Positions 3,038 through 21,006 of a stretch of 32,550 nt of DNA are shown in pieces. This stretch comes from an uncultured bacterium (lineage in GTDB: Bacteria > Bacteroidota > Bacteroidia > Cytophagales > Cyclobacteriaceae). How positions within the stretch are numbered: the first letter of the stretch is position 1; the number at the start of each line of letters is the position of its first letter. The DNA lies in contig CBDVAV010000001.1 in assembly GCA_965372055.1 (NCBI GenBank), positions 1 to 32,550 of the forward strand, in the 5' to 3' direction. The notes beneath the pieces were generated by a model. That model had not been told where the DNA came from. It worked only from the letters and a program-made list of their open reading frames with translations, and searched no databases. The translations under genes were made by a program, and so were the position numbers.

Positions 3038-5431
3038 CTAGCGACTCAGCCACACTTTCATCTCCTCGCTGGCCTCCAATTTTTCTATCTCTGCCCGGGC
3101 CTTTTCTACTTGTTCCCGACCTTGCTGAATGATCTGTTGAAATCTGGGGTCATCCCACAGGCTTTCCAAAGGTGGATCATACAAGGCGAAATCGTGCAGC
3201 CCATCACCAAAGCCAAAATTTCCATAATGTTCCAGCCATTTCAAAGCCTCATCCTTGTCACCTAGTTGGGCATATACTTTGGCCAGTTCGTAGCCAATTC
3301 CTTTTGCCCACTGTCTTTTCCTGGCCACTACTTCCAGCAGGAAGTCCCTGATCTCGATCAAGTTTTGATGGGCCTCTTCCTCTTTTCCATTTTGTTTTAA
3401 TACATAACTGTACATGTGTTTATCGTTATACCCTTGAATTCTAATTACATCAGGTGAGCTGTCGTACAATTGTCTAAAATACTTTTCCGATTCATGGTAG
3501 TTGCCATTCATCATATTAATGATGGCCAGATGATACAGTACCTGGCCTTCAGGATTGATAGCTTTCAATTTTTCAGCAATGGGCAGGTTCTGTTTAAATT
3601 TTCCCTGGCAACGGTTAGTGTGAGCTAATCCTCCATAAGCTAGCACATGATCAGGTTGAATCTTTATCACTTCATTAAAATAATGCTCCGCTTTTTCGTA
3701 GTCTCCAACACTTAAGTAAAGCCGTGCGAATTGCATATAAAGTTCTGTTAACTCAGATCCTTTGATCAATGGCGAGGCTCTTACCAGCAATCTGAAGCGA
3801 ACTGAAAAATTATTTTCTAGGAAGTGAATATCGGCCAGTTGTAACATGGCCTCAGTATAGTTAGGGTTGATTTCCAGCGCCTGATCTAGGTCTTCCAGGG
3901 CTTGGGTTTTGGAGTTGGCAATCCAGTAGTAGTACTGACCTCGGAGGGTATAGGCCTCAGCAAGATTAGGATCTATTTCCAGTGCCCGGTTGCAAAGCAT
4001 CAACATGGAATCCAGTGGTTGCTCATCCAGGTATTCCCTAAAAAAATTTCTATCATAATAAACTTCGGCCAAACCGGCATAGGCCAGCGCAAAATTGGGA
4101 TCAGCTTCCAGGGCACGACGATACAGGCTTACTGCATTTTCGTAATCCTGGTTTTCGGTCTTGTTGTGGTATCGCTTGGCATATTGCTTTCCCCTTATAT
4201 AATATTCGTATGCTTCAGTGCTTTCCGTTGCCAAGGTTGTTAATCCTGATACTTCTTCTGGGGATATCTTTAATTTCAGTTGACTCACAATCTCTTCAGC
4301 TATCTTTCTTTGAATATCAAAAATACCCCGCGTGGTGTATTCTGAAGTGAAGTTATCTGCCCAAATATGCCTGTCATCATCTGTACTTATTAGCTGTGCG
4401 GTAATCATTATCTGGTCTTCTGATTTACGTACACTTCCTACTAATAAGTAACTTACTTTCAACTCTGTACCTATTTCATTAGCTGGTTTTTTCGTGTCCC
4501 GGTATTGTTCCACGGAGGTTCTTGAAATTACCCTTAGTTCTCCCATCTTCTGTAAGTTTGTAAGGATGTCTTCCATTACTCCATCAGCGAAATATTGTTG
4601 GTCTCCTTGCGGGCTCATGTCCGCAAAAGGAATTACTGCAATTGATTTATCAATTATCTTTACTGTTTCACTATCCTTTTGGTTATTATAAAAGAAATAA
4701 GCTAAAGCAAGGATTAGAATTACACCTATGGAAGCTAAAAGGATTTTGCTCTTGTTTTTTGGTTTTGATTCTATTGAAGGAGAAGCGATTGTAGATGTTG
4801 ATTGGACTCCTTCTTTTTCAATCTTGAAAGAATCTCCAATTTTCAGTCCTGATACTATCTCTTGTATAGCATTTGCTACTTTGTTGATTTGATTGCGATA
4901 ATTAGTCCTATTCAGATTATCTTCTTTGTTGTCCTCCGGTTTGAGTGGTCTGTTTACCCCTGGCTCTTGATATACAAAATCAATTGATCTTAAAAAGCCA
5001 ACCTCATCTTCTACTAACTGTCTATCTGCATCACTAATATCATGAATCCTTATAGGTAAAACCCTACTTGCAGTATTGCCATTTGGAAGTTCTACTTTCA
5101 AACCATGATCGTCAGCTTCCGCCATTTTATTGAATGCCAAAAATTCATTAGTCCAGGCGAAGCTATTGGGGTCACAGTAGGTTTTAGATATGATGGGGAT
5201 AAAGATTAAACACTTTAATTTCTTAGCTAAGGAATCATCTACATCATGAGTTTCCAGTAAACCATCGTATGGGTTTTCATCAAAATAGATGGAGATGTAT
5301 TCTTTGAAAGTAGCTTCAATCTCACTCTTTAATGTATTGATAAACTCTGTAACCCATCCATCCAGTTTGTTATCCTTCTGGCGATAACTGATGAAGATGT
5401 CATATTCGTAGCCTGGGATAATTGAAGGCAT
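3038..5431 (-). CDS. TIR domain - single TM - TolB-N-like module - TPR repeat protein (paralog 1)
   Basis: 797-aa ORF. The N-terminus YDIFISYRQKDN...LIFIPIISKTYCDPNSFAWTNEFLAF is TIR-like. One hydrophobic helix ILLASIGVILILALAYFFY spans aa 230-248 (nt 4688-4744). KSIAVIPFADMSPQGDQQYFADGVMEDILTNL follows, then ~400 aa of TPR-like repeats. Confidence 0.85.
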   Translation of the reverse strand: MPSIIPGYEYDIFISYRQKDNKLDGWVTEFINTLKSEIEATFKEYISIYFDENPYDGLLETHDVDDSLAKKLKCLIFIPIISKTYCDPNSFAWTNEFLAFNKMAEADDHGLKVELPNGNTASRVLPIRIHDISDADRQLVEDEVGFLRSIDFVYQEPGVNRPLKPEDNKEDNLNRTNYRNQINKVANAIQEIVSGLKIGDSFKIEKEGVQSTSTIASPSIESKPKNKSKILLASIGVILILALAYFFYNNQKDSETVKIIDKSIAVIPFADMSPQGDQQYFADGVMEDILTNLQKMGELRVISRTSVEQYRDTKKPANEIGTELKVSYLLVGSVRKSEDQIMITAQLISTDDDRHIWADNFTSEYTTRGIFDIQRKIAEEIVSQLKLKISPEEVSGLTTLATESTEAYEYYIRGKQYAKRYHNKTENQDYENAVSLYRRALEADPNFALAYAGLAEVYYDRNFFREYLDEQPLDSMLMLCNRALEIDPNLAEAYTLRGQYYYWIANSKTQALEDLDQALEINPNYTEAMLQLADIHFLENNFSVRFRLLVRASPLIKGSELTELYMQFARLYLSVGDYEKAEHYFNEVIKIQPDHVLAYGGLAHTNRCQGKFKQNLPIAEKLKAINPEGQVLYHLAIINMMNGNYHESEKYFRQLYDSSPDVIRIQGYNDKHMYSYVLKQNGKEEEAHQNLIEIRDFLLEVVARKRQWAKGIGYELAKVYAQLGDKDEALKWLEHYGNFGFGDGLHDFALYDPPLESLWDDPRFQQIIQQGREQVEKARAEIEKLEASEEMKVWLSR

Positions 5432-15386: not shown

Positions 15387-15824
15387 TTAAGGAATTGATA
15401 TCATGTCATTTTCTGTAAATACTTTTGTTTTAATAAGTAAACCACTCCGATATTTTATTTTCATTCTTTTAGGAACATTAATCATGGGATCATCTATCTC
15501 TAGCGTTCTATGGGAAGCAAGCATTTTAAGTTTATTGTTTTGTACTTTTTTTCTGACCGAATCTGTTACGTTTAAATCATTTTCATCATTATCAATTCCA
15601 TAATAAGCTTCAATGATCTCAAATTTATTCCCCCATAACTTAATAATTATTAATAAAGAAATAATCACAATTCCTATTAACCATAAAATTGAGATTTTTA
15701 CATCGATGATTTTTAACGCCTTAATCCATGGAACACCTTCTATCCGTCCTATTATAATTAGAAAGGTGTAACCACCTAATGTTCCTAAAAATCCTTTCAA
15801 AATATGACCTCCCCACTTTTTCAT
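15387..15824 (-). CDS. Hypothetical membrane-anchored small protein
   Basis: 145-aa ORF with two N-terminal hydrophobic segments and a soluble C-terminal ~75 aa (AYYGIDNDENDLNVTDSVRKKV..IDDPMINVPKRMKIKY). Confidence 0.5.
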   Translation of the reverse strand: MKKWGGHILKGFLGTLGGYTFLIIIGRIEGVPWIKALKIIDVKISILWLIGIVIISLLIIIKLWGNKFEIIEAYYGIDNDENDLNVTDSVRKKVQNNKLKMLASHRTLEIDDPMINVPKRMKIKYRSGLLIKTKVFTENDMISIP

Positions 15825-16204
15825 ATATTATTCCGATCTAGTAAAATTTTTTAACGAATTTTGGAAGAATGATCAATCATTAAAAAGATCATTTACTTCA
15901 ATCCTTTATATTAAGAATTATATACACTTTTTGATATACTTGTCTCCATTCAATTTGAATTATTTTTACTCTAAGATTAGTTCCTGTTTCTGGTAGTCTA
16001 TTGAAATTTACCAAATCGTTCCAATGCGGATTGACCTATAATAATGGTAGATTTTGATTATGATGTCGTCACTTTGGTATAATGAACTTGATAATCCTCA
16101 CTGAACTATGTATACTCACTCTAACTAGTTAATAATCAATCTATAATAAAACAGCTATAATTATAGGTTGCACATTAGGTGAGAGAATCCATAAAAACTA
16201 CAGC

Positions 16205-16270
16205 ATTCCCGAGTTGGACAGGCTGGTGAAGGGCATAAAGGAGTTGGCCAAAGTCGGAATTTGTAAATAG
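16205..16270 (+). pseudogene. Displaced, diverged copy of the 3' end of the aminotransferase gene
   Basis: Encodes IPELDRLVKGIKELAKVGICK*, against ISELDRLVKGIKELAKV* at 6836-6889. There are 9 mismatches in 58 nt, mostly at third codon positions. Confidence 0.8.
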
Positions 16271-16415
16271 AATCCCAATTGTATTTATTTTGAACCTTTC
16301 GGGAACTTTATATAATTCATTAATTGTTATGATGGATTAGGTGATTATTTTGAAATTGATGTTAATCAACAATACCGAAACTAATTTTCAATTGGAACGT
16401 ATACCCGTTTAATTC

Positions 16416-16490
16416 ATGAAAAATAAATTACATTTCTTCTTTTGTTGTTGCTGTTGTAAAATCTATAGCGAGAGGGGAGAGGATATGTAA
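16416..16490 (+). CDS. Poly-Cys leader peptide 1 (24 aa): MKNKLHFFFCCCCCKIYSERGEDM
   Basis: ATG at 16416 and TAA at 16488. Five consecutive Cys codons occupy 16443-16457. The 3' end overlaps a candidate antiterminator strand, and terminator 1 follows. Confidence 0.6.
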   Translation: MKNKLHFFFCCCCCKIYSERGEDM

Positions 16491-16516
16491 TTAGTTACTA
16501 TATGTAAGAATTTACA

Positions 16517-16546
16517 GGCCTTTCCCCAACAGGAAAGGCTTTTTTT
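16517..16546 (+). terminator. Intrinsic terminator 1
   Basis: Stem gcctttcc (16518-16525) / ggaaaggc (16532-16539), 6-nt loop, then a 7-T run at 16540-16546. Confidence 0.8.
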
Positions 16547-16634
16547 ATGATTTTTAATTAAAGCAACAAAGCCAAAGAAATGGCTTCATCAATAATTATG
16601 AAATATAAATTTTACCGAAGTGAAAAATAAAATT

Positions 16635-16694
16635 ATGAAAAACCCGGCAATCGATTGCTGTTGTTGTAAGGCCTGTTCGAAACCTCCGGGATAG
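16635..16694 (+). CDS. Poly-Cys leader peptide 2 (19 aa): MKNPAIDCCCCKACSKPPG
   Basis: ATG at 16635 and TAG at 16692. Four consecutive Cys codons occupy 16656-16667, with a fifth at 16674. Terminator 2 follows. Confidence 0.55.
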   Translation: MKNPAIDCCCCKACSKPPG

Positions 16695-16731
16695 TCCATA
16701 TTGTCTAGCTAGTGAAAAGCTAAATGACCAT

Positions 16732-16759
16732 GGCCTTTCCCAACAGGAAAGGCTTTTTT
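16732..16759 (+). terminator. Intrinsic terminator 2 (near-identical to terminator 1)
   Basis: Stem gcctttcc (16733-16740) / ggaaaggc (16746-16753), 5-nt loop, then a 6-T run at 16754-16759. Confidence 0.8.
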
Positions 16760-16766
16760 GTTATTA

Positions 16767-16837
16767 GACAGCGTGGCCGAGTGGTTAGGTGGAGGTCCGC
16801 AAAACCTTAAACGGCGGTTCGATTCCGCCCGCTGTCT
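16767..16837 (+). tRNA. tRNA-Cys (anticodon GCA at 16799-16801), no encoded CCA, C instead of U at position 33
   Basis: Hand-folded cloverleaf. Acceptor GACAGCG/CGCTGTC with discriminator T. D arm GCC-GAGTGGTTA-GGT. Anticodon stem GAGGT/ACCTT with loop CCGCAAA. Variable loop AAAC. T arm GGCGG-TTCGATT-CCGCC. Confidence 0.8.
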
Positions 16838-16865
16838 CTTTTAAGTGATTTAACCGAGTATAAAT

Positions 16866-18974
16866 ATGAAAAGCTTTAGAACTGAAATTGAAAACCCCGA
16901 AGTTGAAAAAGACATTATTGAATTAGAGAAGAAAATTTATCAATTCAATAATAAAAAAATTGATGAAGAAAAATTCAGGGGTCTTAGGTTAGCAAGAGGA
17001 ATTTATGGTCAAAGACAACCTGGAGTGCAAATGATCAGGATCAAACTTCCTTACGGAAAACTGACAGCAGACCAAATGATACGGATTGCTGATGTCTGTG
17101 ATGAATATTCCAATGGAAATCTCCATACTACCACCAGACAAGATATTCAAATACATTATGTAAGTCTTGATAAAACCCCCGAATTATGGGCAAAACTAGA
17201 GAAAGATGATATTAGCTTAAGAGAAGCTTGTGGAAATACTGTCCGTAATATTACAGCTTCGGCCATTGCTGGAATTGACCCTAATGAACTTTTTGATGTT
17301 ACCCCGTATGCACAAGGGTTTTTTGAATATTTCTTAAGAAACCCCATTTGTCAGGATTTGGGAAGAAAATTCAAAATATCATTTTCATCAAGCGATGATG
17401 ATTCTGCCTTCACATTTATGCACGACATCGGGTTTATTCCCCGGTTGAAAAAAGTTGGAACAGAAGAGGTCAGGGGATTTAAGGTGTTGATAGGTGGAGG
17501 TTTGGGGTCAAGGCCTCTTGTGGCAAAGGTTGCCCATCACTTTCTGCCTGATAGTGAAATTTTACCATTTACTGAATCTGTTTTGAAGGTCTTCGATCGT
17601 TATGGTGAACGGAAACGTAGAAACCGTGCCAGGTTAAAATTCTTGCTTGAAGATATTGGGCTTGATGTGTTATTGAGATTGGCAAAAGTAGAAAGGCCCA
17701 GCAGTGCTTCCGAAATCTTTCCATTTGAAACAGTAGAGAAGGTCTTCCAAACACCTGAAAAAAGAAGTATTGGAGAGGTTACAGTGACCAATAAGTCCAA
17801 ATATAAAGATTGGGTTACGACCAATACATTTGAACAGAAGCAAAAGGGGTTTATGGGTATTAAAATACGGTTGTTGATTGGTAATATAGATACCATGCGA
17901 TTTAGAAAACTTGCCAAGCTGGTTAAGCTATATGCTGGAAATGATCTGCGGGTCACCATCAACCAAGGGTTGTTTATAAGGTTTGTGCCTAAGAAGTATC
18001 TACCTTATTTCTTTAATCAATTGGATGAATTGGGGCTTGCTGAGCCTGGTTTTGATAGTGTTTCTGACATTACTACCTGCCCGGGCACAGATACTTGCAA
18101 CCTGGGTATCTCAAGTAGCACCGGAATGACCCGCGAATTGGAGCAAATTCTAATGGAGGAATATCCAGAGTTGATCCATAATACTGCCCTAAAGATCAAG
18201 ATCAGCGGTTGTATGAATTCATGTGGACACCATTCAACAGCAAGTATTGGGTTGCATGGAAGCACTCTCCGTGTAAAAAACAAAGTAGTGCCAGCCATGT
18301 TGGTCCATCTTGGTGGTGGCCCATTAGGTGCCGGACAGGGTAGTATGGCTGAAAAATTAACAAAAATACCAAGCAAGAGAATCCCTGATGCTTTAAGGGT
18401 TTTGCTTGATGACTACCAGGAGAATGGCCAAAATGGAGAATATTTCAATGCCTATTATTTGAGACAAGGCAAGCTATATTTTTTAAACTTACTTCAGCCC
18501 TTCGCGGTCACTGGTAATTTAATGCCAACAGATTTTATTGATTGGGGCCACAGCGACAATTTTAAAACTGCGATAGGTATCGGTGAGTGTGCAGGAGTCA
18601 CCATAGATCTGGTAGCAACACTGTTTCTGGAAGTAGAAGAAAAACTTGATAATGCATTATCGTCCCTTCAGGATGAAGCTTATGCAGACTCTATATATTT
18701 TAGTTATGCTGCTTTCATTAGTGCTTCCAAGGCGATGTTGATCAGTGGGGGTATTGAGACCAATACTCATGCCGGAATTATTTCCTTGTTTGATGAAACA
18801 TACGTGGATACCAACATAGTTTACATTGATGGGCAGTTCAGCAGCATGGTATTGAAAATGAAGAATACTGAACCAACTGGAAAGTTTGCCGAAGAATACC
18901 TGGCAGAAGCCATGGGATTTCATCAACAATTACAGAAAGCAAGAGAAAACCAATTGATCAATGAAAAGGGCTGA
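16866..18974 (+). CDS. Assimilatory sulfite reductase hemoprotein, NirA/Sir/CysI family, long (702 aa) form
   Basis: Siroheme-[4Fe-4S] cysteine clusters are present: TCPGTDTCNLG and KISGCMNSCGHH. There are duplicated nitrite/sulfite reductase ferredoxin-like halves and a ~140-aa C-terminal extension. Confidence 0.85.
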   Translation: MKSFRTEIENPEVEKDIIELEKKIYQFNNKKIDEEKFRGLRLARGIYGQRQPGVQMIRIKLPYGKLTADQMIRIADVCDEYSNGNLHTTTRQDIQIHYVSLDKTPELWAKLEKDDISLREACGNTVRNITASAIAGIDPNELFDVTPYAQGFFEYFLRNPICQDLGRKFKISFSSSDDDSAFTFMHDIGFIPRLKKVGTEEVRGFKVLIGGGLGSRPLVAKVAHHFLPDSEILPFTESVLKVFDRYGERKRRNRARLKFLLEDIGLDVLLRLAKVERPSSASEIFPFETVEKVFQTPEKRSIGEVTVTNKSKYKDWVTTNTFEQKQKGFMGIKIRLLIGNIDTMRFRKLAKLVKLYAGNDLRVTINQGLFIRFVPKKYLPYFFNQLDELGLAEPGFDSVSDITTCPGTDTCNLGISSSTGMTRELEQILMEEYPELIHNTALKIKISGCMNSCGHHSTASIGLHGSTLRVKNKVVPAMLVHLGGGPLGAGQGSMAEKLTKIPSKRIPDALRVLLDDYQENGQNGEYFNAYYLRQGKLYFLNLLQPFAVTGNLMPTDFIDWGHSDNFKTAIGIGECAGVTIDLVATLFLEVEEKLDNALSSLQDEAYADSIYFSYAAFISASKAMLISGGIETNTHAGIISLFDETYVDTNIVYIDGQFSSMVLKMKNTEPTGKFAEEYLAEAMGFHQQLQKARENQLINEKG

Positions 18975-19788
18975 CAATTTGCCAAGGTTTACTTTAGTCG
19001 GGGCAGGTCCGGGAGATCCCGAACTTATTAGTATCAAGGGTGCAAAAGCAATACAAAAGGCTGATGCCATACTCTATGATGCACTAATCCACAAAGAGCT
19101 ATTGGATTTTGCCCGGGCAGACATACCCAAAATATCCGTGGGTAAAAGAGCCGGAATGGCTGCCATCCTCCAAACTGAAATCAACCAACTGATAGTTGAT
19201 TATGCCATTCGCTATGGTCATGTGATTCGGTTGAAGGGGGGAGATCCCATGATTTTTGGAAGAGGTGCAGAAGAGATAGACTATACGAACAAATTTGGGA
19301 TTCCCTCTGAAGTTATTCCGGGAATATCCAGTGCTACAGGAATTACCAGTTTGATGAAAATCCCTGTTACCAAGCGAAATATTAACCAGAGCTTTTGGGT
19401 AATAACAGGCACCACTAAAACCGGGGATTTATCACGGGATATCCCAATAGCTGCCCAGTCCAAAGCCACGGTCATCATATTGATGGGGGTTAAGAAATTG
19501 AGAGAGATCGTTGCAATTTATAGGTCATTTGGTAGAGAAGAGACCCCTATTGCCCTAATTCAAGACGGTTCGCTTCCAACCCAGAAAGTAGCCTTCGGGA
19601 GAATTGACAATATTTTGTCTGAGGTGAGAGCAAAGAAAATCAGAACTCCTGCCATAATTGTAATTGGAGAGGTTTTGAACACGGTTGAATCGTTATCTGT
19701 TTTCAATGATCTTGAAATTTTATTTGAGAAAGAAGCCATTAATGCAAATGAGTACCAATCAACTATATCCTATATTTCTCAATCTTAA
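18961..19788 (+). CDS. cobA: Uroporphyrinogen-III C-methyltransferase (SUMT)
   Basis: Motifs VGAGPGDPELISIKG, RLKGGDPMIFGRG and IPGISS. The start overlaps the upstream stop by 14 nt. Confidence 0.9.
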   Translation: MKRADNLPRFTLVGAGPGDPELISIKGAKAIQKADAILYDALIHKELLDFARADIPKISVGKRAGMAAILQTEINQLIVDYAIRYGHVIRLKGGDPMIFGRGAEEIDYTNKFGIPSEVIPGISSATGITSLMKIPVTKRNINQSFWVITGTTKTGDLSRDIPIAAQSKATVIILMGVKKLREIVAIYRSFGREETPIALIQDGSLPTQKVAFGRIDNILSEVRAKKIRTPAIIVIGEVLNTVESLSVFNDLEILFEKEAINANEYQSTISYISQS

Positions 19789-20329
19789 AAAGCTACATGT
19801 CCTGATAATTGGCGGTGGTGAAGTAGGATTGGAAAAACTCCGGTTCATGATTTCCAATTCACCGGGGGCACAGGTCGCTTTAGTGGCACCCAAGATCAAG
19901 CCTGGAATTATTGATATATTCAAATCTGCAAACGGTGTGGAACTCCTTGAAAGGCAGTTTAATGAAAAGGACCTTGAAGGAAAGGGGATTATAATTCTTG
20001 CTACCAATAATAACAAACTTAATCTTCAAATAAGAAATATGGCCAGGGCAAAAGGAATACTGGTAAATGTTGCAGATACACCTGAATTGTGTGATTTCTA
20101 CCTTGGTTCCATCGTGACAAAAGGGAATCTTAAAATCGCCATTTCAACCAATGGGAAATCCCCGACTTTCTCCAAAAGAATTCGGCAATTCCTGGAGAAT
20201 TCTATACCTGATGAAACACCTCAATTGTTGAGAAACCTAAATGCCATCAGGGATTCCCTGGAGGGAAATTTGAAAGAAAAAATCCAAGAATTAAACAGCC
20301 TCACCGAAATCCTTGTGAGAAAGCCATGA
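19742..20329 (+). CDS. Precorrin-2 dehydrogenase / sirohydrochlorin ferrochelatase (CysG N-terminal domain-like, SirC/Met8 type)
   Basis: Rossmann motif VLIIGGGEVGLEKL, then NVADTPELCDFYLGSIV. An internal start (MQMSTNQLYPIFLNL) was chosen because the longer ORF overlaps cobA. Confidence 0.8.
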   Translation: MQMSTNQLYPIFLNLKKLHVLIIGGGEVGLEKLRFMISNSPGAQVALVAPKIKPGIIDIFKSANGVELLERQFNEKDLEGKGIIILATNNNKLNLQIRNMARAKGILVNVADTPELCDFYLGSIVTKGNLKIAISTNGKSPTFSKRIRQFLENSIPDETPQLLRNLNAIRDSLEGNLKEKIQELNSLTEILVRKP

Positions 20330-21006
20330 CAAATATTAAAAGTATAACCAAAGAGGAATTGGATTCATTGAATTCAAAATACAAGAACCTTGATCCCAAA
20401 AGTAGAATTGAAGATTTACTTAAAGATTTTCAAACGGATAAGATATTACTGACATCTTCATTTGGGGCAACTTCAATTATGTTAATTCACATGTTTAACC
20501 AAGTAAATCCTAACCAGGTTGTTTACTTTATTAACACTACTTATCATTTCAATGAAACCCTGGATTATCGAAACTTAATCATCGAAAGGTTCGGATTGAA
20601 TGTAAAAGAGTTAAAGGCTGGCGAATATGAGAATAGATTTACCAGAGAATATAAAGCCTGGGAAAAAAACCCGAACATTTGCTGCTTCATTAACAAGGTA
20701 GATCCTTTTAATAGATTAAAACCCAAACATGATGTTTGGGTGTCAGGCCTGATTGGTTTCCAAAATACCTTTAGAAAAGAACTGAACATTTTTGAAAAAA
20801 CAGCGGATATTATAAAATTCCACCCTTTAATAGATCTCTCTAAAAATGAAGTAGCCAATTATATTAAAATGCACGACCTGCCAATACATCCATTGGTTAA
20901 CAAAGGTTATGATTCAATTGGTTGTAAACATTGCTCTATTAAAGGACAGGGTCGTACAGGCCGTTGGCTGAACAATGCCAAAACAGAATGTGGACTTCAT
21001 GTATAA
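20326..21006 (+). CDS. cysH: Assimilatory adenylyl-sulfate/phosphoadenylyl-sulfate reductase (thioredoxin), Fe-S (APS) type
   Basis: PAPS_reduct fold (LTSSFGATS) and C-terminal ECGLH. The cysteine pairs NICCF and GCKHC form the CC...CxxC [4Fe-4S] signature of APS reductases. Confidence 0.9.
   Translation: MTNIKSITKEELDSLNSKYKNLDPKSRIEDLLKDFQTDKILLTSSFGATSIMLIHMFNQVNPNQVVYFINTTYHFNETLDYRNLIIERFGLNVKELKAGEYENRFTREYKAWEKNPNICCFINKVDPFNRLKPKHDVWVSGLIGFQNTFRKELNIFEKTADIIKFHPLIDLSKNEVANYIKMHDLPIHPLVNKGYDSIGCKHCSIKGQGRTGRWLNNAKTECGLHV

Follow-up and report, generated by a model that had tools for sequence, protein, structure and literature searches.

In Flavobacterium psychrophilum, a member of the Bacteroidota, transcription attenuation by translated leader peptides has been documented for three operons, his, ilv and trp (PMC9723704 and its supplement). 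For cysteine, a leaderless polycysteine short open reading frame (ORF), Ms5788A, was described in mycobacteria. It acts at the level of translation and without a terminator: its Cys tract pairs with the Shine-Dalgarno region that belongs to the following gene (bioRxiv 10.1101/834739). The authors of this 2020 study stated that attenuation mediated by an upstream ORF (uORF) had not been described for cysteine before (bioRxiv 10.1101/834739). Leaders with Cys tracts were also predicted in Actinobacteria, again without terminators (PMC1262725). In Rhodobacterales, the uORFC-8-2 motif before cysS was predicted to be a ribosome-mediated attenuator with tandem Cys codons and a terminator (PMC8632094). 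Attenuators in tandem, mgtM and mgtP, are located in the mgtCBR leader of Salmonella, where they sense different signals upstream of one operon (PMC3641672). In the present study, a stretch of 32,550 nt from an uncultured bacterium of the Cyclobacteriaceae (Bacteroidota; GenBank assembly GCA_965372055.1, contig CBDVAV010000001.1, positions 1 to 32,550, forward strand), termed the window in the following, was analyzed. The analysis was focused on two tandem short ORFs with runs of Cys codons, each followed by an intrinsic terminator, which are located upstream of a tRNA-Cys gene and a sulfur-assimilation operon.

How Bacteroidota regulate the assimilation of sulfur is, to our knowledge, essentially uncharted, and the phylum is not known to have the CysB, CymR, S-box and T-box systems of Proteobacteria and Firmicutes. 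The locus probably carries two classical ribosome-mediated attenuators in series, which sense charged tRNA-Cys and gate the tRNA-Cys gene together with the operon for sulfite reductase, siroheme synthesis and 3'-phosphoadenosine 5'-phosphosulfate (PAPS) reductase. The observations behind this reading are the elements themselves and their rarity, alternative helices evaluated against the footprint of a ribosome, significance against shuffled sequences, and conservation across lineages. We infer from them that ribosomes translate both leaders, in coupling with transcription, that one transcript covers both units and extends to tRNA-Cys, and that cysteine elicits a response of the system.

When Cys-tRNA-Cys is scarce, the ribosome would stall on the Cys codons of a leader. 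The stalled ribosome would cover region 1 and leave free region 2, which spans or adjoins the stop codon of that leader. Free region 2 would pair with the emerging 5' arm of the terminator, and RNA polymerase would read through. With ample cysteine, the ribosome would proceed to the stop codon and cover region 2; the terminator hairpin would form, and transcription would end at the T-run. Since the polymerase must pass both terminators, the two read-through probabilities would multiply, which would result in a lower basal level and in a steeper and wider response. Because the tRNA-Cys gene lies behind both terminators, the level of charged tRNA-Cys would feed back on the supply of this tRNA.

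An initial annotation of the window had described two poly-Cys leaders, paired terminators, tRNA-Cys and a sulfur operon, and each of these features was recovered where it had been placed. In both leaders the Cys codons are clustered, as in classical leader-peptide attenuators. An alternative in-frame GTG start of leader 2 is present at 16620 and would add KNKIM to the peptide. Four consecutive TGY codons (TGYTGYTGYTGY) were found three times on the two strands of the window, each time within leader 1 or 2. The number expected from dinucleotide shuffling was 0.05, and 0 of 100 shuffles reached 3. Between leader ORF and first regulated gene, intrinsic terminators are present: hairpins with T-run tails were called at 16516-16541 and 16732-16754, with stabilities of -15.5 kcal/mol (terminator 1) and -14.8 kcal/mol (terminator 2). 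The nearest upstream gene (15387-15824) runs on the strand opposite to the leaders; therefore, terminator 1 does not end any upstream gene of the plus strand. The genes downstream (sulfite reductase, siroheme synthesis, PAPS reductase) are needed for the synthesis of the sensed amino acid.

Both units were folded with and without a ribosome mask, as had been proposed as a check in the initial annotation. The mask consisted of a 29-nt footprint that was forced to be unpaired during folding. In the free RNA of unit 1, the leader ORF folds back on itself, 5' half against 3' half, as a long hairpin, which is followed by the terminator. The helices between regions 1 and 2 are 16426-33/16485-92, 16435-43/16475-83 and 16448-54/16465-71, and the fold of the whole unit reached z = -5.5 versus shuffles. 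The probability of the terminator was 0.99 in the free RNA, 0.02-0.04 with the A-site of the ribosome on Cys codons 10-13, and 0.99 with the ribosome at the stop codon. Unit 1 switched even at equilibrium, i.e. in full-length folding with masks. With the ribosome on the Cys codons, the constrained minimum-energy fold contained a helix of 16474-16482 (GGGGAGAGG) with 16519-16527 (CCUUUCCCC), by which the 5' arm of the terminator is sequestered. The same pairing had been read from the letters alone in the initial annotation, and its logic for leader 1, antitermination upon stalling and termination upon arrival at the stop codon, agrees with the probabilities obtained with the masks.

The antiterminator of unit 1 was calculated at -16.9 kcal/mol, compared with -6.0 +/- 2.5 kcal/mol for 200 dinucleotide shuffles. 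Antiterminators that exclude the terminator and whose 5' strand depends on the position of the ribosome were thus found in silico, the stronger of the two for leader 1. As modelled, the helices of unit 1 follow the 1:2, 2:3 and 3:4 pattern known from trp, his and leu attenuation. The three Phe codons of leader 1 are part of the polypyrimidine strand of region 1 (UUCUUCUUU) that pairs with region 2. This strand accounts for a match to the Rfam family Phe_leader (RF01859) at 16415-16547, which at 25.9 bits (E = 0.1) is below the gathering score of 55 and too low for membership in the family.

In the folding models, unit 2 has the correct geometry and is weaker than unit 1. When the transcript was cut before the 3' arm of the terminator, an antiterminator of 10 bp with two 1x1 mismatches was obtained, which closes an inner hairpin. 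In the free RNA, its 5' strand (16688-16699) pairs with 16670-16678 instead, the equivalent of region 1. A terminating ribosome would cover 16688-16699; a ribosome stalled at 16656-16667 would leave this strand free and would cover 16670-16678. The stability of the antiterminator was -9.5 kcal/mol; when the intervening segment was shuffled 200 times with dinucleotides preserved, -3.3 +/- 2.1 kcal/mol was obtained (p = 0.015). For leader 2, only weaker alternative pairings had been named in the initial annotation. Its ranking of leader 2 below leader 1 was confirmed, and its candidates have to be replaced by the better pairing of 16688-16699 with 16730-16741, which it had missed.

For comparison, 66 related loci were collected around homologues of the sulfite reductase. 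The closest homologue obtained in searches of genomes, metagenomes and 5.8 billion proteins was 61% identical; since no close relative is available, the 66 loci probe deep conservation. Of the 66 loci, 20 carry leaders rich in Cys or in Cys and Met, with terminators, upstream of the orthologous gene or its operon; they belong to about 15 distinct lineages of Bacteroidota (L001, L004, L006, L018, L019/L022/L049, L021, L023, L025, L032/L033, L058, L059 from Porifericola rhodea, L060 from Pontibacter sp. G13, L062-L065, and L066 from Xanthocytophaga agilis). The sulfite reductases of these loci are 44-61% identical to that of the window. A search of this kind, upstream of orthologous genes, had been suggested in the initial annotation, which let its claim depend on conservation of the short ORFs and terminators at orthologous operons. 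The architecture proved to be conserved there, in the approximately 15 lineages mentioned.

Examples of the leaders of relatives are MKRTALTFLSSYMCMCMCMCCCANSKPG..., MNNNFTYTLSTINSPMMCCMMCI, MFNIVSVNIKMVRCCPCCCSNDTERH and MNIVAKYIYKSCCCPELS. In these, Cys is usually mixed with Met, unlike in leaders 1 and 2 of the window, which are rich in Cys only. Judged from their codons, the mixed leaders probably sense both sulfur amino acids. Such multivalent control by Met and Cys fits the pathway, because its sulfide feeds both amino acids. Outside the Cys/Met cluster, the peptide sequences diverge widely among lineages, and the reading frame of the Cys/Met codons is retained while the nucleotides diverge. 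The lineages were found to share no sequence or structure beyond an ORF rich in Cys/Met, a terminator and the logic of the antiterminator. A strict scan, in which a short ORF had to contain two or more Cys and four or more Cys plus Met within 6 residues and to have a terminator within 120 nt, was applied to 57 loci (about 0.8 Mb of strand sequence). It resulted in 17 matches, all of them on the coding strand and upstream of the gene or operon, and in zero matches downstream or on the opposite strand.

Tandem pairs of leaders, A and B, are present in about ten lineages (the window, L001, L004, L006, L019/22/49, L032/33, L058, L062/63, L064 and L065). A perfect TAnnTTTG box was found 10-20 nt before leader A in L001, L004, L006, L019/22/49, L062, L064 and L065. 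In the relatives, inspection by eye revealed no such box from terminator A to leader B or from terminator B to the first structural gene. With a box before leader A and none further along, a single transcript probably has to pass both terminators. The position of this -7 box, which ends approximately 10-20 nt before the AUG of the leader, suggests a short 5' untranslated region in the relatives.

Because attenuation is kinetic, transcripts of 16 units were folded as cut just before the 3' arm of the terminator. The terminator's 5' arm then paired, in almost every one of the 16, with a segment that spans the stop codon of the respective leader or is located just 3' of it (P about 0.75-0.99). 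A ribosome at the stop codon reduced the pairing of the 5' arm to 0.17-0.52 in 11 of the 16. The stability of the antiterminator exceeded that of 200 dinucleotide shuffles in 16 of 20 units, with a mean z of -3.3.

Several results weigh against two working attenuators in series. At 61% identity of the closest homologue, the helices of the window itself are beyond a covariation test, and many of the Bacteroidota loci are without the leader element. When full-length transcripts were folded at equilibrium, the terminator won in all homologous units tested except unit A of L006, which gave a mixed result. There is no perfect TAnnTTTG on the plus strand from 15627 to 17191 and hence none before leader 1; a scan for sigma-70-type promoters is uninformative in this phylum. 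A near-match to the -7 box (TAAATTTT) is located between units 1 and 2, and a separate promoter of unit 2 is conceivable. On the full-length transcript of leader 2, the terminator won at equilibrium under every mask, and a ribosome at the stop codon lowered the pairing of the 5' arm slightly, from 0.76 to 0.66. The fold of the whole unit 2 had a z of -1.8, as against the -5.5 of unit 1. The near-match and the weakness of unit 2 would both be expected if only leader 1 worked and leader 2 were a decaying duplicate, or served mainly to control tRNA-Cys from a promoter of its own, in which case there would be no multiplicative series. This is improbable, since the antiterminator of leader 2 is still significant versus shuffles and spans the stop codon with the Cys run 21 nt upstream, and since the tandem has been kept in about ten lineages, where the second unit is often the richer one in Cys and Met. 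A perfect promoter box between the units is absent from the window and, by eye, from the relatives. Given that the terminator wins at equilibrium, switching of unit 2 and of almost all homologous units tested would be kinetic, as in many classical attenuators.

The short ORFs might also encode functional Cys-rich peptides, e.g. metal- or redox-active ones, with terminators of their own and with the operon transcribed independently. The start context of each short ORF (ATGAAAAA) is indeed good, each is followed by a terminator, and leader A of L062 was called as a hypothetical gene of 41 aa by an annotation pipeline. The wide variation of the peptides outside the Cys/Met cluster makes this very unlikely, as does the complementarity of the stop-spanning segment to the 5' arm of the terminator, which is far beyond chance. 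In the relatives, the spacer that leads from the last terminator to the first structural gene, in which no promoter box was seen by eye, is often shorter than 100 nt, and at the loci examined the matches of the strict scan are located solely upstream of sulfur-assimilation genes. That the terminators are controlled through a protein, through a small RNA or through an RNA that binds a metabolite, with the Cys codons being incidental, is just as hard to credit. It is known that SAM riboswitches, T-boxes or CymR/CysB-type proteins control sulfur genes in other phyla, and some Bacteroidota loci apparently use another system, with conserved TAGGGTAA motifs and an adjacent putative Rrf2-type gene. 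Against this stand the Rfam searches. With E-values up to 10 admitted for the window region, and with the gathering threshold applied to 12 related loci, tRNA was the sole family above threshold. In particular, the covariance models of the SAM riboswitch and the T-box gave no match in the window region or in 12 related loci. What is conserved across lineages is limited to the short Cys/Met-rich ORFs, their terminators and the logic of antitermination, and the frame of the Cys/Met codons is kept despite the divergence of the nucleotides.

Serial ribosome-mediated attenuators therefore remain the preferred reading. Folding and comparison of loci support the view that they represent a conserved, apparently undescribed form of classical leader-peptide attenuation. 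In the searchable literature, no leader-peptide terminator attenuator with Cys or Met codons was found for sulfur assimilation in Bacteroidota, whether doubled or with a cognate tRNA, although priority is not fully settled by this. The initial annotation had known of no case in Bacteroidota and of no tandem pair, and the literature searched is in line with this. The tandem is not peculiar to the window, as it is carried by about ten lineages.

Table 1. Positions of the predicted regulatory elements and of the genes at the cysteine leader locus.
Feature	Position	Strand	Description
Candidate Bacteroidota-type promoter	16324..16353	+	TTG, 19 nt, TTATTTTG; putative and weak, one mismatch to TAnnTTTG
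Leader ORF 1	16416..16490	+	Encodes MKNKLHFFFCCCCCKIYSERGEDM; five consecutive Cys codons, putatively regulatory, at 16443-16457; stop codon 16488-16490
Region 1, attenuator 1	16426..16454	+	Phe/Cys codons; predicted to pair with region 2 when free of ribosomes (anti-antiterminator)
Region 2, attenuator 1	16465..16492	+	Core 16474-16482 GGGGAGAGG, predicted 5' strand of the antiterminator; would be covered by a ribosome at the stop codon
Intrinsic terminator 1	16517..16546	+	Stem 16517-25/16532-40, then 7 T; 5' arm 16519-27 is the predicted 3' strand of the antiterminator
Leader ORF 2	16635..16694	+	Encodes MKNPAIDCCCCKACSKPPG; four Cys codons at 16656-16667 and one at 16674-16676; TAG stop codon 16692-94
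Antiterminator 5' strand, attenuator 2	16688..16699	+	GGGAUAGUCCAU; includes TAG 16692-94; predicted to pair with 16730-16741 AUGGCCUUUCCC
Intrinsic terminator 2	16732..16759	+	Stem 16732-40/16746-54, then 6 T
tRNA-Cys (anticodon GCA)	16767..16838	+	Rfam tRNA, 58 bits; 7 nt downstream of the terminator 2 T-run
Ferredoxin-type assimilatory sulfite reductase, 702 aa	16866..18974	+	Pfam NIR_SIR, NIR_SIR_ferr; homologues named 'sulfite reductase (ferredoxin)'
Uroporphyrinogen-III methyltransferase (siroheme pathway)	18961..19788	+	Pfam TP_methylase
Precorrin-2 dehydrogenase / sirohydrochlorin ferrochelatase-like protein	19685..20329	+	Pfam NAD_binding_7, Sirohm_synth_M
PAPS/adenosine 5'-phosphosulfate (APS) reductase (cysH)	20326..21006	+	Pfam PAPS_reduct

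The tRNA-Cys gene (Table 1) ends 27 nt before the start codon of the sulfite reductase gene. Its distance to terminator 2 is too short for a separate tRNA promoter to fit between them. A tRNA-Cys(GCA) gene is located directly after terminator B also in L032/L033 (2820-2892) and in L058 (3028-3100), the latter being the best homologue overall. The tRNA-Cys sequences of the window, L032/33 and L058 share a mean column identity of 78%. Thus, the layout leader-terminator-leader-terminator-tRNA-Cys-sulfite reductase is present in three lineages, with sulfite reductase identities of 55-59%. Its retention together with divergent tRNA sequences suggests selection for the wiring of the tRNA.

From the position after terminator 2 and the same placement in two further lineages, tRNA-Cys would appear to be part of the regulated unit. 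The stronger claim, that it is an integral, co-transcribed part whose sole route of expression is read-through of two attenuators that sense charged tRNA-Cys, with a closed homeostatic loop as the result, has about an even chance of being right. If true, a shortage of Cys-tRNA-Cys would raise both the tRNA and the sulfide-producing enzymes, and processing by RNase P/Z would detach the leader from the mRNA. We know of no described leader-peptide attenuator with the cognate tRNA gene inside the attenuated transcript.

Around the tRNA genes of the relatives, two further observations were made. In L032/L033, a long G+C-rich inverted repeat without a T-run (CCTCACTCCCTTCCCCTCTCC ... GGAGAGGGGAAGGGGGTGAGG, 2905-2985) is located between tRNA-Cys and the start of the sulfite reductase gene. 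In L058 (3001-3133), the gene call of the database (P0002, 746 aa) begins upstream of tRNA-Cys and spans the tRNA gene. The real start of this sulfite reductase is probably the ATG at 3134 (ATGCAAAGCTTTAGAACAGAA), which agrees with the other orthologues.

The two terminators of the window are nearly identical; they differ in that one of them has an additional C in its loop region. Terminators A and B are unlike each other in most relatives. The 22-nt hairpin sequence is unique to terminators 1 and 2 within the window, and with just these two sites a dispersed repeat or mobile element was rejected. Recent copying of unit 1 into unit 2 was rejected as well, as the tandem is old and the units can be aligned over the Cys run and the terminator only. 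The near-identity of the terminators may be due to shared constraint or to gene conversion.

The segment 15825-16415, between the divergent upstream ORF and leader 1, comprises 590 nt without a convincing gene. One frame in it reads ...GCTLGERIHKNYSIPELDRLVKGIKELAKVGICK* up to 16269 and may be the remnant of the 3' end of a gene. Within the operon, the listed TTG start of the siroheme-synthase-like ORF results in an overlap of approximately 100 nt with the methyltransferase gene (19685-19788), and the true start is probably located further downstream. The sulfite reductase has a C-terminal extension (residues 591-644) with a borderline match to Pfam HEPN (22.5 bits, cut-off 22). Many orthologues carry the NCBI name 'HEPN domain-containing protein', by which their function is masked.

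Several related loci deviate from this arrangement. In Pontibacter sp. G13 (L060 50-172, CP134696.1), a second leader ends with seven consecutive Cys codons (...TICCCCCCC*). It is located approximately 160 nt upstream of cysH, has no obvious intrinsic terminator, and is closer to the actinobacterial poly-Cys leaders. In L064 (4513-4968), a DUF4395 (PF14340) gene occupies the position in the operon after the sulfite reductase and methyltransferase genes; this domain family is reportedly tied to sulfur metabolism, to go by the title of a 2014 study by Lyubetsky et al. No Cys leader was found at the start of operons of the Flavicella type (small membrane protein, cysH, cysD, cysN, sulfite reductase). 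These loci share repeated motifs with TAGGGTAA / GATAGGGT upstream of the first gene (L005 ~620-760, L010 ~480-620, L016 ~500-640, L009 ~690-710, L023 ~770-830). In L009, as judged by eye, an Rrf2-like pattern of Cys residues is present in an ORF whose end is located just upstream. The motifs and this ORF suggest protein-based control in place of the leader system in loci of this type.

The main interest of the locus lies in the breadth of conservation, the serial design and the embedded tRNA-Cys. If the proposed mechanism is correct, a conserved attenuator for Cys or for Cys and Met would be the missing control element in a major environmental phylum, and cysteine would join the few amino acids known to be sensed by attenuators of the classical type with a terminator. 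The window would also provide a natural case of two attenuators of identical logic in series, with the cognate tRNA in the loop and with a predicted multiplicative gain that can be tested. For annotation, a leader combined with a terminator is a simple sequence signature of sulfur-metabolism operons. The leader signature would also flag small 'hypothetical proteins' that are mis-annotated and gene starts that are over-extended in Bacteroidota genomes.

Compared with the classical attenuators (trpL, hisL, leuL, thrL, pheL and ilvL of Proteobacteria, the Bacteroid-trp motif, and the his and ilv leaders of F. psychrophilum), the units of the window share the cluster of codons for the end product, the terminator, the mutually exclusive 1:2, 2:3 and 3:4 helices, the predicted occlusion of region 2 once a ribosome has arrived at the stop codon, and the biosynthetic operon downstream. 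The Met+Cys leaders of relatives resemble the multivalent thr and ilv leaders. Unlike in the classical cases, cysteine would be sensed (in relatives also methionine) and an operon for assimilatory sulfite reduction would be controlled. Two complete units are arranged in series, and the tRNA gene for the sensed amino acid is located inside the putative regulated unit.

With the mycobacterial and actinobacterial leaders, those of the window share a short ORF with consecutive Cys codons before cysteine or sulfur genes, and in both systems stalling at the Cys codons would relieve repression. They differ from them in that each is equipped with a hairpin and T-run terminator and with an antiterminator. 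Poly-Cys uORF attenuators of mycobacteria had been mentioned in the initial annotation; such elements exist there, and the mechanism is a different one, as the mycobacterial element is translational and without a terminator (bioRxiv 10.1101/834739). Pairing of a Cys tract with a ribosome-binding region in the absence of a terminator, as in Ms5788A, does not apply to the window, where the next element is the second leader or a tRNA gene. The motif uORFC-8-2 differs from the window by its target, a cysteinyl-tRNA synthetase, by its occurrence in Alphaproteobacteria, and by having two Cys codons, a single unit and no tRNA gene. The mgtCBR leader is like the window in that two sensing units are placed in one leader before one operon; in the window, both units would sense the same amino acid. 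The short ORFs of mgtCBR are not known to act through two separate canonical intrinsic terminators; in the window, each unit has its own terminator. A further parallel to the serial units is provided by tandem riboswitches and T-boxes.

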